The notes under the pieces were generated by a model. That model was not told the DNA's origin. It saw only the letters and a program-made list of their open reading frames with translations, and ran no database searches. Positions 7,489 to 54,503 of a stretch of 64,000 bases of DNA are shown piece by piece; the first letter of the stretch is position 1; every line of letters begins with the position of its first letter. The translations under genes were made by a program, and so were the position numbers. This DNA is from a virus, in IMG/VR virus record IMGVR_UViG_3300010354_000045, positions 1-64,000 of that record; one strand, written 5' to 3'.

Positions 7489-8484
7489 TTAATTTCCTGT
7501 TAGATTTACTTGTGTTGCTGTAGTAGTATTGTTGTTTTGATTTACAACAGGAAATACTACTCCCTGTAGACCAGTTAGCCCTTGTGAAGATGTTGATATT
7601 CCCGTAGCAACATTAACTGGTAATCCGTTATTTAATGCACTAGTATTTTGATATGTATTAATCTGTTTGGTTAAATTACTTACGAATTCTTGTCTATTTG
7701 CTTCTACATTTATATTACTAATAAAACTAGGACTTGCTGTATCTAAATCTCCTCTGCTTTCTAATGGGCTAGGAGTAAGATCATAGTGTTCTAAAGCAAA
7801 ACCTTCGGGGTCACCCGGAGTAACTTTACCAGAACCATAAGCAACTGCTTCATATGCCAACGTCATAGTTTTTTCATTAAGCTCATTTTGAGCATATACG
7901 CCACTACCATGTTGCCATCCAACTATTAAAGGATTTTTTAGTGTGTAACTAACAAACTCTTTTCTCGACATTTGATAAATGGTAATATAGTTAAAAAATG
8001 GCAAAGTACTACCGTTGTCTAGGCCGTAGGCATTAGGAATAAAATCACTACTTTTTGTTGCATTTCTTGAATACGCACTGCCATTTTTAGCACTATTAGG
8101 ATCAGCATAATAGTAGCTATAATAATTCTGCCATAGTTGATTTATCAAACTCATGTTGTCGTCATGAAATTTAATAGTAATATTTTCATACTTATGAGTA
8201 GTTTGTAAAACTTTTTTTCTATTATATTGATTTACAGTTTCAGTAGTAATACTAAATTTAGGCAAGTCTGCACTTTTTACTAACATATTAATTTCATTCC
8301 TGTGGCGTTGAACAAGATCAATATTTTTAAGTGCTGCCGAATTTATACCAAAACTAACATGAAAAAGAAACTTACTCTTAGGTGCTAATCTAAACCCGTC
8401 GTCAACAAACAGTCTAGCAGCATGTTGAAAGTCACGTAGATTTAAATCACTTCGTGGTTTAAGATAATTTGGGGTAGTAGCCAT
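7489..8484 (-). CDS. Tail tube-like protein (gp19/gp48/gp54 fold)
   Basis: LVKSADLPKFSITTETVNQYNRK..Y.NITIKFHDD pattern; adjacent to tail tube. Confidence 0.65.
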   Translation of the reverse strand: MATTPNYLKPRSDLNLRDFQHAARLFVDDGFRLAPKSKFLFHVSFGINSAALKNIDLVQRHRNEINMLVKSADLPKFSITTETVNQYNRKKVLQTTHKYENITIKFHDDNMSLINQLWQNYYSYYYADPNSAKNGSAYSRNATKSSDFIPNAYGLDNGSTLPFFNYITIYQMSRKEFVSYTLKNPLIVGWQHGSGVYAQNELNEKTMTLAYEAVAYGSGKVTPGDPEGFALEHYDLTPSPLESRGDLDTASPSFISNINVEANRQEFVSNLTKQINTYQNTSALNNGLPVNVATGISTSSQGLTGLQGVVFPVVNQNNNTTTATQVNLTGN

Positions 8485-8489
8485 AATAA

Positions 8490-8495
8490 TATTTA
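8490..8495 (-). promoter_or_regulatory. Late promoter TAAATA
   Basis: CTAAATA 5 nt before ATG 8484. Confidence 0.6.
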
Positions 8496-8530
8496 GCCAA
8501 TAAATTTACTGGGTATTTTATCAAAGCCAT

Positions 8531-21724: not shown

Positions 21725-22153
21725 TTATAGTGCTACTGCATAAGCTATTGCTAGACTATCAGGTATTAATTTTTGTCCGGCTGCTGTAATAGTTCCCGAA
21801 ACTGCAATATTTCCAGTTACCTGTAATTTATTTACACCGTCGTCTATTGCAGATCCTATAACAACATTACCGTTATATTGAGCAATTTTTACTAGTCCTG
21901 AACTATTAACTTCTATACTAGGTATGCCAGATACATCGTTAACTGAAAATATAGTGCCCGTTAAACTATTAGTTAATGAAAACAATTGCCCATTACTAGC
22001 TTCAAAACTAAGAGTACCATTACTTGTTGGTAATGCAACAACACTAACGTTTTGCGGACCAAGACTGGCATTTGCACCGCTAAAAACAATAGCAGGATTA
22101 TTTGCCGAACCTACATTAGGAGTAATTACTATATTTTTATCAGAATTTGCCAT
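21725..22153 (-). CDS. Short tail-fibre-type protein
   Basis: LFSLTNSLTGTIFSVNDVSGIPSIEV, KLQVTG fibre motifs; TAAATA 7 nt before ATG. Confidence 0.65.
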   Translation of the reverse strand: MANSDKNIVITPNVGSANNPAIVFSGANASLGPQNVSVVALPTSNGTLSFEASNGQLFSLTNSLTGTIFSVNDVSGIPSIEVNSSGLVKIAQYNGNVVIGSAIDDGVNKLQVTGNIAVSGTITAAGQKLIPDSLAIAYAVAL

Positions 22154-22180
22154 AGTATTATATTTAGTTGTTAAAAAACT

Positions 22181-24064
22181 TTAAAGTCTTGTTATAACTA
22201 CCTGTCCTTCAGCCAAAGTTGCATTAGGAGCACCTGCACTAGCTAAAGATCTAGTAACATTAGTGGCACCTGGAACAACGTAGGAACTTCCGCCTGTTGA
22301 TCGACGTAAACTCTGCCCCGAACTTCCTGTTACGACTCCGCCTGTATAACCGCCACCACCGCCAGTACCAAATCCTCCGTTTCTGGCACCACCACCGCCA
22401 AAACCCGCGCCGCCGGCAGTTGTAGTATCAAATACGGTTGATTGATAAAGGCCGCCAAACAGTCCATTAAAAAAACTTCGACCTTCACCAACATTGCTTG
22501 TAGGAAATCTGTCACCGTTGGTATTAAATCCGCCGCCACCGCTAGGATTTGCGGTACCACTATCATTATTAATTGTTCCACCATTACCGGTTGTAGGAGT
22601 TAATGGATTTAATGCGCCTGCATTTAGCACTGTAACGGTTATTCCGTCTGTAGTTTGAGCATCTGCAAAAGCCTGACCTGTTTGAAAACTAGCCTCACTG
22701 GTATAAAAACTGTAATCACCGGCACCCCCAGCTACTACTAATGGGGTGGAGCCGGCAATAGCTCCATTATTTGAAAGAACAACCCAACTAGCTCCTTCAC
22801 CTACTTCGGTGGCAGCACTTGCACGCTGTCCACAAATTATCCATATTTTTTGACCTTGTGTTAAACTTACTGTTGCTGTAATTAAAGCAGCAGCACCTTT
22901 AGTAGAGGCGCTGCCACTAGAAGCGCCTCTTGCTTGTATCTGATAATTAGCAGATGCTGGCACAGTCCATAGCTGATACCCGTTAAATGCGGTTACTTGA
23001 TAATAGGCGGTATTGTTTAACCAAGGATTATTAGCGGTATCATATGCAGCCAGTAATTGTGCCTGAGTCGGGCCAAGGCGACCAATAGTGCCTGCGTTAG
23101 TAAATGTAAATGTAGTAAACGAATATAAGTTAACTGCTACAGTAAGGTTAAAAGTTTTGCTAGTAGTTTGATTTATTTGATCAGTAAACGTAACGGTAAA
23201 AGTTGTTGAGGCAATACTTTGAGTAGGAAGTCCTGAAATAGTTCCATCTTGGCTAATAGATAGGCCTGTAGGTAGTGTTGGACTAATAGACGCAGCAACG
23301 GTACCATATCCACCAGTATAACTTACTGGTCTAAAAGAAATTGATCCTGTTACTGTTTGATTTGCAATTAGTACAGTACTTGATAAGACAGGAAAAGATA
23401 CACTCTGAAAGGTTCGATTCGAAAAGGCTCTATAATTATTTTCTATTTCACTGTCAGACAAAGCTCTATTATAAATTCTAACTGCTCTTATAGAACAAGT
23501 GGCAAATTCACCTGGGAATCCATTGTGAATGTTAAGGATTTGACTAGTAAAATTATTATTAAAATTTGATTTTTGATGTTGTAAAATAGCATTTTTATAA
23601 CCATAGGCTACATTAGATTCTCTTTTTAAAACAATATGATTCCATTCATTTAAAGTAAGAGACCAACCAGCAGTTGGGTCTGTATTAAATGTAGCACTGT
23701 AAAAATATACTTGTCCGTTAGTGACATTTGCTTTGAGTGCAAACGTATTTTGCTCGGGTAACGCTACCATGTGAGTATATGTGCTAAAGCTAGTCGGATA
23801 TATCCAAACTTCTATAGTAAAATTACCGGTTCCGAACGCCCAGTTACTATTAGAAGGCCATTGTAAATAGTCGGTACTAGGAAATGACCATGCACCTGTG
23901 ACCAAACTCCATGTTGTAGTTCCTACAATTGATCCCACTAAAGGAGTACTTATACCCGTTGTGGTAATTTGTTTAGTAGCAAAGTTTGTATTGTTATAGT
24001 TAAATGAATCAATATTAAAAACTAATCCTGATATAACTAAATTTGGTCCTGAAATCCCTGCCAT
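22181..24064 (-). CDS. LamG/ConA + Ig-like + glycine-rich putative adhesin
   Basis: FTIEVWIYP..WNHIV..VRIYNRALS (LamG), LPTGLSI..GTISG.PT (He_PIG-like), C-terminal GGGG runs. Confidence 0.75.
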   Translation of the reverse strand: MAGISGPNLVISGLVFNIDSFNYNNTNFATKQITTTGISTPLVGSIVGTTTWSLVTGAWSFPSTDYLQWPSNSNWAFGTGNFTIEVWIYPTSFSTYTHMVALPEQNTFALKANVTNGQVYFYSATFNTDPTAGWSLTLNEWNHIVLKRESNVAYGYKNAILQHQKSNFNNNFTSQILNIHNGFPGEFATCSIRAVRIYNRALSDSEIENNYRAFSNRTFQSVSFPVLSSTVLIANQTVTGSISFRPVSYTGGYGTVAASISPTLPTGLSISQDGTISGLPTQSIASTTFTVTFTDQINQTTSKTFNLTVAVNLYSFTTFTFTNAGTIGRLGPTQAQLLAAYDTANNPWLNNTAYYQVTAFNGYQLWTVPASANYQIQARGASSGSASTKGAAALITATVSLTQGQKIWIICGQRASAATEVGEGASWVVLSNNGAIAGSTPLVVAGGAGDYSFYTSEASFQTGQAFADAQTTDGITVTVLNAGALNPLTPTTGNGGTINNDSGTANPSGGGGFNTNGDRFPTSNVGEGRSFFNGLFGGLYQSTVFDTTTAGGAGFGGGGARNGGFGTGGGGGYTGGVVTGSSGQSLRRSTGGSSYVVPGATNVTRSLASAGAPNATLAEGQVVITRL

Positions 24065-51881: not shown

Positions 51882-52108
51882 GCCTAATTAGTCTTTCACC
51901 CGGTGAAATAGAAGAAAAACTAGTTAGGCTAGATCAAGAAGTTAAAAAATTTAAAGAAGAATTATTTCGACTTACTTGGTACATGCGAGGCGGGGTAAGT
52001 ATAAATGATTTATTATTTGTATACACCTATGATGATAGGCAAGCAATTTATACTGTAGTACAAGAAAATTTTGAGTTAACTAAAGAAACTCGAATGCCTT
52101 TACTTTAA
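51875..52108 (+). CDS. gp51-like ORF reachable by -1 frameshift from gp26
   Basis: Open -1 frame RLSLISLSPGEIEEKL..LFRLTWYMRGGVS..RMPLL*; no upstream start codon; T TTT TTC at 51869-51875. Confidence 0.7.
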   Translation, partial: RLSLISLSPGEIEEKLVRLDQEVKKFKEELFRLTWYMRGGVSINDLLFVYTYDDRQAIYTVVQENFELTKETRMPLL

Positions 52109-53286
52109 CGGCCCCTATCTCCAACATAGCCAAAATCAACTTTTTTAGTTACTGGATCTTGTATAAACCCCGGTGCATAATAAACCCACTTGTCTCTAGG
52201 ACTTGGAGTTAATTTTGACGGATCTGGTTGATCTCCGATACGGGGTGTTGTTTGTCCGGCACCGGAAGCTGCATTTGCTGCATTTTGTGAAGACTGTCCA
52301 GGTCGTTGCGAACTAGGTGGTTCACTAGTTCCCCCAATGTCAGTTTTTGAATCATCTGCTGGCCTAGCACCTTGACCACTAGACGATGGTTGACTAGACG
52401 CACCAGCTGCTTGTGCAATTTTAGCAGCTTCTTGGTCGTAGGTAGTTGTAAACATACTTAAGATCATATCTTCTAAAGTAGTTAAAAGAGGAGCAGCTCC
52501 TCTTTGAATTAAACCAGGAGGACATTTTCCTTCTTCAGCTGTTGTTGAACAAGCAAACCAATTTCCTATAGCTTTGGCATTTTCTTCGGAGTTGGCTAAA
52601 GTCATAAACATTGCCGCTAATACCTTATTTGGCAATTGAGTTTTTTCTTTCACCCATGCTCCTGCTCGTGTACTAAAAATCCCTATAGTTTTTGCAGCTA
52701 TAGCGGCAGGCATTTTTGCTAAAATACCAGTTCCTATTAATACTGTAACACGACCGGCTAATTTTGTAATCTGTTGATTTCTGTAGGCTTGGAAACTTTC
52801 AAGCATTTCTGGAGTAGGATTTTTTTCTAGTTCTTTTAATGCCCATTGCATATCTTGATAATAATCAATAAAGGGTTCTGCAAATGCATAGGCTATAGCA
52901 ACTCCGGATGTAGCGGAAACTAAATTTCTTACTATACTGCCTGTTTTTACTACACCTGATTTAGCTCCCGAAACAGCTGATGCTATAGAGGCACCTGCTC
53001 TCCTTAATCCGCTAGGAGCTCTAACTTTATTTGCTTGTTTAACAGCAGTATCTAATATACCAGGATTTTTTGCCACTAGCCTTTGTGCTTCAGGGCCTAA
53101 TCCTTTAGCAACAGCTTCTGCTTCGGCTCTTGTGGCAGGCCCTGCCCACTTGCCAGCAGAAACTAGCCCATCTTTAATAGCAGTAAGTAATTGTGATGAT
53201 TTAGTTCCAAAGAGACTTCCTAATGTTCTAGCGACTGCGCCATATTCATTTATTTGCTCTTTGTGAACGATGTCTAATATTTTCAT
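52105..53286 (-). CDS. Hypothetical late protein with hydrophobic helices
   Basis: 393 aa, MKILDIVHKEQINE N-term, Ala/Gly hydrophobic segments; TAAATA at 53308-53303. Confidence 0.65.
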   Translation of the reverse strand: MKILDIVHKEQINEYGAVARTLGSLFGTKSSQLLTAIKDGLVSAGKWAGPATRAEAEAVAKGLGPEAQRLVAKNPGILDTAVKQANKVRAPSGLRRAGASIASAVSGAKSGVVKTGSIVRNLVSATSGVAIAYAFAEPFIDYYQDMQWALKELEKNPTPEMLESFQAYRNQQITKLAGRVTVLIGTGILAKMPAAIAAKTIGIFSTRAGAWVKEKTQLPNKVLAAMFMTLANSEENAKAIGNWFACSTTAEEGKCPPGLIQRGAAPLLTTLEDMILSMFTTTYDQEAAKIAQAAGASSQPSSSGQGARPADDSKTDIGGTSEPPSSQRPGQSSQNAANAASGAGQTTPRIGDQPDPSKLTPSPRDKWVYYAPGFIQDPVTKKVDFGYVGDRGR

Positions 53287-53316
53287 AGGAATCTCTTTTT
53301 GATATTTATCGAGATT

Positions 53317-53801
53317 TAAAAGAAGAACTACGTTCTTCTGTTCTTCGCTATCGCTCGAACTTTTTTGTATTTTTAATGCGAAGCATTTAAATATTATCTA
53401 GATTGTTCAGTCACACTTAGCCCGTTAGGGCTAAGAAACATTATCTGAGTCGAACATGTCACACAGCGTTAGGACTATAAATGTTTGCTATTCTGTACAA
53501 AATAACACTATATTGTATAGAATAGTTAACATTATGCATAGGCGGTTGTCCGGTACCTACTCATCCCGTCTTATCACAACGGCAGGCCTGTACTGATACG
53601 CTATCATCTGTACAGCCGTTAGGGAGTTACCCTTCTTTTAGCCTTTTTAAAATTTTCCTGTATAGCAAATCCGGTTGTGTGTAGGCATATCCGAACATCG
53701 TCCTGTAAAGGATAGTTGCTATAAACTCACAACGGCGAGAGATTTCCTTACCCTGCGACATCACCAGGGATTCGGGCGCCCGAAATTAGCTGACGCTTGC
53801 T
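53317..53801 (-). ncRNA. Candidate large structured ncRNA
   Basis: Longest intergenic gap in a tightly packed window; at least 10 hairpins and repeated motifs; strand inferred from the upstream operon. Confidence 0.55.
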
Positions 53802-54245
53802 TTAACCGTTTGATCGAGCCTGTGCTTGTTCTTGTAGGCGCTGCCTTAAGATGTTTGACCCACCAATTCTACAGTTGATAATACCGTTATAGTATTCGTC
53901 TGTTTCAAGAACTCTGCGTTCAAACTGTTCTCTTGCCTCTAGATATGACATTTCTGCCTTAGATTTGCAGTAATAAAGTATTTCTCTAGTAAATTTTTCC
54001 GGACCTAATGCGTGTACGTCTGCCTGTAGTTTGTCTGATGAGCCCCAATAATTTCGCCAATCGCTTTCGACGGTACTACGTCTTTTAAGTTTTTTGCCTT
54101 TGAGAGGAGGTCGTGTTTTTTTAAATTGGGCTAGTTTTTTGCCTATATATTTTTGTCCGGTTGTAAGGTTGGTAATAAGATAAACAAAGCCAATATAGCC
54201 TTCAGGAATTTCTTCTACTAATTGATTTTGATGTGTCCATGACAT
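53802..54245 (-). CDS. GIY-YIG endonuclease (endonuclease II/DenA-like)
   Basis: GFVYLITN...YIGKK, W..YWGSS, F.REIL, YLEAREQF, YYN. Confidence 0.85.
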   Translation of the reverse strand: MSWTHQNQLVEEIPEGYIGFVYLITNLTTGQKYIGKKLAQFKKTRPPLKGKKLKRRSTVESDWRNYWGSSDKLQADVHALGPEKFTREILYYCKSKAEMSYLEAREQFERRVLETDEYYNGIINCRIGGSNILRQRLQEQAQARSNG

Positions 54246-54248
54246 CAC

Positions 54249-54503
54249 TTATGTATTATCTTGAGACTGATCCTTCAGTTGTTTTTGAGCCTCTCGATAC
54301 TTTGGACTTTTTATTTTAGGTTTCTTTTTTCGTATTTCTAAAATTTCTTCCCTCATAGCCAAAGCAATGCGCCTTATTTCATATAGATGTTTTCTTAGCC
54401 TAATTCCGCTAGCATGTGATTCGTAGTTTTCCCATGTTTGATTTTCCTCAAAGTAGGCTCGAAACTCTTTCATCAATGCTTCATGTAAATGCCTAGTGGT
54501 CAT
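54249..54503 (-). CDS. Small basic Hc1-like (histone H1-like) protein
   Basis: ASGIRLRKHL.EIRR.A..MREEI resembles AAGTRARK.L.EL pattern; Lys-rich tail. Confidence 0.5.
   Translation of the reverse strand: MTTRHLHEALMKEFRAYFEENQTWENYESHASGIRLRKHLYEIRRIALAMREEILEIRKKKPKIKSPKYREAQKQLKDQSQDNT

Follow-up and report, generated by a model that had tools for sequence, protein, structure and literature searches.

The 64,000-nt stretch of viral DNA analysed here (the window) belongs to a 161-kb record from a freshwater giant (jumbo) phage, in which the locus under study is a gap of 515 nt at 53287-53801. As the first-pass annotation had claimed, this gap is the biggest ORF-free stretch of the window, and it is also the biggest of the whole record. 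The operon that had been placed upstream was confirmed, with gp55, gp47, gp46 and a SegE-type GIY-YIG gene, as was a late-promoter-like motif ahead of the next gene (ATAAATA at 53303-53309). Between the nuclease and gp46 lies a basic 84-aa protein (54249-54503, minus strand) that is missing in several relatives and matches Hc1 weakly (E 5e-4, under the cut-off). The gene on the far side of the gap (52105-53286, minus strand) encodes a late protein of 393 aa that matched nothing in PHROG or Pfam, and relatives carry at its position variable proteins starting MKI.(D/E)I. Past the baseplate hub gene a seeming gap at 51882-52109 (plus strand) resembles a short gp51-like gene more than a true intergenic stretch, while beyond the window a 4,600-codon ORF lies amid structural genes (G000 67156-80955, plus strand).

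Comparison with Rfam identified 53660-53801 (minus strand) as Polynucleobacter-1 (RF01718) over the full model (positions 1-141), scoring 74.6 bits against a cut-off of 37, which refutes the earlier view of an undescribed family without a match; for the remainder of the gap nothing credible was found at E up to 5. The stem noted at 53751-69 agrees with the Rfam consensus stem. Polynucleobacter-1 was reported as a candidate RNA downstream of PSSM2_218-like genes when no sequenced phage had one, and the supplementary alignment of that study contained a tail subfamily with P5-P8, reaching to ~53539 of the window, and one pseudoknot without covariation support (PMC2864571). The window element appears to have the same placement (PMC2864571), downstream of what may be a GOS11034/PSSM2_218-like gene, the upstream gene being phrog_447/PF19835 with many cyanophage relatives. 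What was absent from sequenced phages in 2010 (PMC2864571) is here a core jumbo-phage locus. The RNA was drawn at ~260 nt in 2010 and is held in Rfam as 141 nt of ~410, with PK2, P7, the boxes, P9 and the tail counted at that time as flanking sequence and the tail pseudoknot corresponding to PK1, which covaries here (PMC2864571). The gap encodes a real structured RNA of ~410 nt, the 5′ third of which is Polynucleobacter-1 and which is far larger than catalogued. What was an orphan motif in 2010 is one piece of a larger RNA with pseudoknots, found at a locus that belongs to the core of uncultured jumbo phages. In addition, type B elements have the core and 3′ part in common with type A, to which the window element belongs, together with a different 5′ half, and fall below the Rfam cut-off.

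The coordinates of all features are given in Table 1. The description of the gap as packed with helices holds, with folding energies of z = -3.5 (minus strand) and -4.4 (plus strand) and none of 100 shuffles equally stable, and every helix arm that had been listed was found in its place, the pseudoknots and the twin boxes having been overlooked. Loci were gathered in two ways, via the nuclease and separately via a core DNA pattern, revealing the whole gap to be conserved in 97 distinct full-length phage loci with a mean identity of 65%. Covariation was assessed by a background-corrected G-test against a tree-based null, and complementary covariation was detected for P1, P4, P6, P7, P8, P9, H1 and H3 as well as the pseudoknots PK1 and PK2. 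The proposed check for covariation in homologous loci gave a strong result, and the claim of a large, structured noncoding RNA is well supported for the minus strand. A separate alignment of 70 sequences has pairing in 94% of cells and double changes in 47 of 67 pairs; its covariation score of 0.50 compares with at most 0.08 in slid controls, part of this excess being expected because the structure came from the same sequences.

Table 1. Features of the locus, listed in the 5′ to 3′ direction of the minus strand.
Feature	Position	Strand	Remarks
SegE-type GIY-YIG gene	53802-54248	-	PF19835 E 5e-35; usual, non-obligate upstream neighbour
RNA proper, ~410 nt, full-length Polynucleobacter-1, type A	53393-53801	-	3′ end at box 2 suggested by PA5oct look-alike
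Rfam RF01718 Polynucleobacter-1 domain (P1-P4)	53660-53801	-	74.6 bits, cut-off 37
P1 (53796-92 with 53776-80)	53776-53801	-	covaries; two pairs exceed all null values
PK0, tentative 3-bp pseudoknot (53801-799 with 53788-90)	53776-53801	-	86% paired, non-significant
P4 three-way junction	53661-53723	-	non-canonical U.C/C.U covariation at 53712/53700
PK3, tentative: P4b loop GCCU (53686-83) with AGGC (53644-41)	53641-53686	-	mostly invariant, weak covariation
P5 hairpin	53620-53633	-	single pair, E 0.08
P6 stem; loop 53604-53598 is PK2 5′ strand	53588-53615	-	G-U 141 vs A-C 6
PK1 (53580-76 with 53545-49)	53545-53580	-	near-fully paired, double changes
Invariant core GGTACCGG-NNN-ACCGCC and P8 (53559-56 with 53539-42)	53545-53580	-	
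P7 long-range helix (53566-63 with 53472-75)	53472-53566	-	among top covarying pairs
Inserted hairpin, lineage-specific	53480-53533	-	missing in most relatives
PK2 3′ strand, partner of P6 loop 53604-598	53463-53469	-	97% paired; double changes in 6/7 pairs
Box 1, NNA-CTC-RSATRAW	53440-53452	-	7-mer AGATAAT at 53446-40
P9 hairpin, between boxes	53416-53435	-	G-U 39 vs A-C 3
Box 2, NNA-TCT-RSATRAW	53393-53405	-	7-mer at 53399-93 same as box 1
H1, GCGAAGC mini-hairpin	53375-53387	+	GAA loop on plus (template) strand
A-rich tract and H2 (C-GNNA-G loop, tandem G.A)	53340-53374	-	
H3 end hairpin, GTA loop	53321-53339	-	97% Watson-Crick; G-U 4, A-C 4
Late-promoter-like GATAAATA	53303-53310	-	serves next gene (53286-52105)

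Comparative support was obtained for the helices previously seen at 53321-39, 53416-35, 53539-59, 53588-615 (outer stem), 53620-33 and 53661-723. The inner TGATA/TATCA pairs were not confirmed, their loop being taken up by the long-range pseudoknot PK2, and the long stem at 53480-53533 turned out to be a lineage-specific insertion. PK1 and P8 are 99.7% and 100% paired respectively, with double changes. The strand had been deduced from operon context, which is needless as G-U pairs on the minus strand far exceed A-C apposition (P6 141:6, PK2 46:3, P7 81:1, P9 39:3); this excess, along with the GNRA and UUCG loops of the core, among them G(GCAA)C, points to RNA. No Rfam or ARAGORN match identified RNase P, tmRNA, tRNA or a group I or II intron; readings of the boxes and core as RNase P, group I or K-turn were dismissed on inspecting the alignments, and the RNase P look-alike words GGAAA and ACCGCC lack, by inspection, an RNase P P4 partner. 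Metatranscriptome contigs are sparse and, with a depth of 2-6, too thin to give level, ends or strand, one of them spanning the nuclease gene into the element (53680-53842); the JGI metagenome scan covered contigs above 1 kb and hence holds no RNA-sized contigs. Internal deletions of 100-170 nt occur in three loci, removing box 1 and P9 (L006:3700-3716), P3-P5 (L010:3495-3500) and the 5′ half (L062:3405-3415), and are either natural variants or assembly artefacts.

On either side of P9 the 7-mers of the two boxes covary by identity, being identical in 162 of 167 loci where chance would give 18%. Joint switches of the two boxes on the tree match the rate of base pairs, with 20 at one position compared with 18 for PK1 and 20 for P4, and the pair has switched jointly even between two elements that are 97% alike. 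The spacing of the boxes is 47-59 nt without helical phasing. No complement of the box was present within the element in 94 of 96 cases, and no box match was found at a homologous site elsewhere in five large genomes. A trans partner was also sought in five genomes with a result no better than that for swapped boxes, and readings of the boxes as internal pairing or as promoter mimics were dismissed on inspecting the alignments. Given the identity within each copy, the switching at the rate of base pairs and the lack of a complement, the simplest explanation would be that one box pairs with the strand opposite its twin.

Beyond box 2 the character of the element changes. The RNA-like part appears to end near 53393 and to be succeeded by a tail of ~70 bases that look like DNA hairpins, such that the single ~480-nt RNA originally proposed is probably not what the gap encodes. 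The A+T content from box 2 to H2 averages 71% compared with 54% for the core. H1 and H3 covary with nearly pure Watson-Crick pairs and no G-U bias, and the loops are mostly C-GNA-G, C-GNNA-G or C-TTTA-G: a C-GNA-G loop occurs on either strand of H1 in ~81 of the 97 loci (G-U 5, A-C 4), while H3 loops are mostly GNA, GNNA or TTTA. Loops of these three kinds form unusually stable DNA mini-hairpins, and we know of no comparable status for GNA triloops in RNA. The end hairpin and U-run that had been noted were not confirmed, the T run being short, the terminator scan not calling H3 and G-U bias being absent. The tail may therefore be DNA that acts once unwound.

The nearest cultured phages by gp55 are PA5oct/Paride, Phosso and the 121Q group, and each of the three that were examined has a large gap flanked by the gp46-resolvase block on one side and the baseplate hub gene on the other. 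The syntenic elements of 121Q, GAP32 and PA5oct have the helix order of the window and twin boxes. The 121Q gap is conserved in more than 70 jumbo-phage records at 2-5 places in each, and the RaK2/121Q-type multicopy RNA combines the helix order, core motif, twin boxes and a syntenic copy. In these type C elements the order is that of the window (P6 loop, CCGTTG, P7, P8 holding CAAC-CCGC, P7′, PK2′, box, P9, box, C-GNA-G hairpins), with double changes in 24 of 35 pairs and PK1, P7 and P8 100% paired. The boxes use other words (CGTCA, TGTCA, CTTCA, preceded by ATC, ACC or ACG) and differ between enterobacterial paralogs of one genome, and yet the pair within a copy matches at all compared positions in 21 of 22, which is not what a shared protein reader would enforce. 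Profile methods gave no significant link: the covariance model of types A/B had no match below E 0.38 in the cultured-phage elements and type A/B HMMs likewise failed to find them, the best HMM cross-search was the reverse HMM at E 0.048 on a type B core, and a blastn search with the element gave no match among cultured phages or plasmids. A topology descriptor recovered all four 121Q copies and the window element at ~1.4 false matches per Mb, while four type A/B copies and every PA5oct copy escaped it; as the elements had been seen before it was written, it does not count as independent evidence. Synteny, helix order, core motif and boxes make it probable that the window element and the cultured-phage elements are homologous, and the window RNA is probably part of a clade-wide jumbo-phage element.

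A TGnTATAAT-like promoter motif lies ahead of 21 of 22 type C copies, and enterobacterial phages have four to five co-oriented, evenly spaced copies, with intervals of 44-86 kb in five-copy genomes (p for evenness ~0.001-0.004 in each genome); because the five-copy genomes are relatives, the even spacing amounts to about one observation. Of the eight C-GNA-G hairpins with at least 5 bp in the 121Q genome, five fall in its four tails. Copies also occur on small recombinase (integrase) islands in E. coli, Serratia and Silvania, on which no Rep or primase gene was recognisable. In PA5oct there are three unevenly spaced copies, two of them paralogs of the syntenic gap, and one of these is ncRNA004, for which Lood et al. 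(2020; PMC7318152) gave neither structure nor function. By RNA-seq ncRNA004 made up 0.08, 0.03 and 0.02% of phage reads, being most abundant early (PMC7318152). It contains P6/PK2, PK1, P7, P8, box, P9 and box in the order of the window, with no significant profile similarity to it, and its twin boxes read CCGAA..CATAAG. The annotated end at 246,734 coincides, within the precision of an RNA-seq annotation, with the last base of box 2, on the assumption that the coordinates of the paper are those of the equal-length RefSeq record. Two other PA5oct RNAs, ncRNA001 and ncRNA002 (8263-8498 and 21951-22401; L465, L466), are by search not paralogs of ncRNA004 and reach up to ~5% of phage reads each (PMC7318152). 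In the Sinorhizobium phage Phosso the syntenic gap is a 1-kb ORF-free stretch with a GAA-loop hairpin followed by an RNase HI gene (L418:11760-12774), and this one sequence did not suffice to place it in the family.

By analogy, the element can be read as a two-part, cis-acting candidate for an RNA-primed (R-loop) replication origin working like ColE1 RNA II, a reading that we favour tentatively and rate at somewhat short of an even chance. In the window, host RNA polymerase would transcribe the element by reading through from the gp55-gp47-gp46-nuclease operon, and in enterobacterial phages it would start at an early promoter belonging to the element. Behind the polymerase, the fold would then bring box 1 of the RNA up to the box 2 template strand, and this contact would nucleate an RNA-DNA hybrid that persists. 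Priming of the leading strand would fall to the 3′ end of the RNA at box 2, possibly after trimming by RNase H, and the opened tail would fold into hairpins that load helicase or primase. An RNA end at box 2, the A+T-rich hairpin tail, spaced co-oriented copies, low early expression and the Rep-less islands fit such an origin, and in two cases only, Phosso and L106, the locus has an RNase HI gene next to it. Against it, the freshwater genomes show one copy each and the PA5oct copies are unevenly spaced, T4 origins work without structured RNA, and no plasmid match was found. Fourfold-site GC skew showed no flip at the element in five genomes, the cumulative minimum lying ~4 kb off and tracking the coding-strand switch. 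Over most of the record in G000-G004, element-strand genes are lower in fourfold-site GC skew by 0.1-0.2 than those of the other strand, an effect confounded by gene class.

In ColE1, a G-stretch lying upstream in RNA II base-pairs with a C-stretch of the template near the origin, the same logic as that proposed for the twin boxes. The ColE1 pre-primer, 550 nt long and transcribed by the host polymerase, forms a persistent hybrid and becomes the primer (PMC5043065), and the window RNA resembles it in size, in its proposed transcription by host polymerase and in the hybrid proposed here; the window differs in being phage and not plasmid, in lacking sequence or Rfam similarity to RNA I and RNA II, and in that no antisense RNA I or Rop was seen. 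T4 has several R-loop origins per genome, of which oriF, oriG and oriE combine a promoter with an A+T-rich tract, as is proposed for the element, whereas T4 R-loops need no specific sequence or fold (PMC3016281). For the element, an A+T content of 71% in the tail and promoters of enterobacterial copies were observed, and no clear promoter of its own was seen for the window element. In keeping with T4 origins, the point at which transcription changes direction is 0.8-4.2 kb away from the element in four of the five genomes. The iterons of T4 oriE are evenly spaced 12-mers, in contrast to the unphased boxes here (PMC3016281). A limited literature search found no paper on how replication starts in these phages.

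The position of the element directly after the nuclease stop in 119 of 140 loci might suggest a guide or scaffold RNA of the GIY-YIG nuclease, similar to HEARO or omega-RNA, although this set is biased to the nuclease as many loci were fetched along with it. In the other loci a gene is inserted between the two (11), a PD-(D/E)XK nuclease takes the place (3) or neither applies (7), and in further cases RNase HI or unrelated genes lie upstream. The obligate linkage expected of an RNA-guided system is thus not found, no variable guide segment was seen, and hundreds of cultured phages have the nuclease gene with blastn showing no element there. Such a role is very improbable; the element persists without the GIY-YIG gene, which is a neighbour rather than a partner and is dispensable to it. 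More credible, if still unlikely, is a free trans-acting ornate RNA serving as scaffold, cage or protein sponge in the manner of GOLLD/ROOL or CsrB, with the boxes as a symmetric tertiary contact or a site for a dimeric protein and the tail as a terminator. Its rich tertiary structure with loop-loop helices and the own promoters of enterobacterial copies would suit this, the island copies could serve the host as decoys and, speculatively, like-with-like contacts could allow parallel pairing of the identical boxes. However, a diffusible RNA has no need of even spacing or of DNA-type hairpins, the box match holds per copy and not per genome, and abundance in PA5oct is low. As for the likening to GOLLD and ROOL in the first-pass annotation, no sign of comparable abundance was seen, with RNA contigs too sparse to be informative and the PA5oct look-alike at 0.02-0.08% of phage reads. 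GOLLD, ROOL and OLE are also large, pseudoknotted, phage-associated RNAs (PMC12286853), but neither these nor HEARO gave an Rfam match to the window RNA, for the former at E up to 5, and the twin boxes and DNA tail set it apart.

Copies that follow early promoters, co-oriented with bulk transcription and evenly spaced, might instead act in cis to modify elongating host RNA polymerase, as a processive antiterminator of the put or EAR kind for long early transcripts. That strand of 121Q has, though, 85 such promoter motifs against four elements, the PA5oct RNA is annotated as stopping at box 2, a late-promoter motif comes at once after the window element, and the boxes and tail would be left unexplained, making antitermination less likely again. 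That the whole element is folded single-stranded DNA, either a displaced strand or a single-strand origin, would accommodate the DNA-type tail; G-T wobble is possible in DNA, and the sense strand is the one displaced in an R-loop. The GNRA and UUCG core loops, including G(GCAA)C, the U.C/C.U covariation, the pseudoknots and the detection of RNA in PA5oct all speak against this, and we consider it improbable.

Returning to the RNA-primed origin, a broader and more tentative proposal unites Polynucleobacter-1, the RaK2/121Q multicopy RNA and PA5oct ncRNA004 in a single family that would be the RNA-primed replication origin of a whole jumbo-phage clade, its folded RNA targeting its own template via the twin boxes, and that is found also on small enterobacterial islands; this is possible, if rather doubtful. 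Should the origin model hold up, the element would be an example of a structured primer RNA from beyond the ColE1-type plasmids, and of an RNA that locates its own template through a word occurring twice. Should it not, there would still be an RNA feature to explain, namely two sequences whose covariation is by identity and keeps pace with that of base pairs. With probable counterparts in phages that infect P. aeruginosa PAO1 or E. coli K-12-compatible hosts (121Q group, PA5oct, Paride), the element would become testable at the bench. In one phage contig a tRNA and a permuted tmRNA of alphaproteobacterial type lie 4 kb from the element (L172:3911-4304), possibly hinting at the host.

Repeats upstream of the element were also considered. 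As upstream iterons of type A, AGGCA repeats were rejected, being barely enriched (1.28 vs 0.93 per 85 nt). In L106 ~10 tandem, iteron-like 14-mers (TTACCCTAAAGCAG) on the minus strand lie between an RNase HI gene and a Polynucleobacter-1 element, and in L155 and L108 repeated TAGGCAC words lie directly ahead of type B elements, 200-480 nt upstream of the core.
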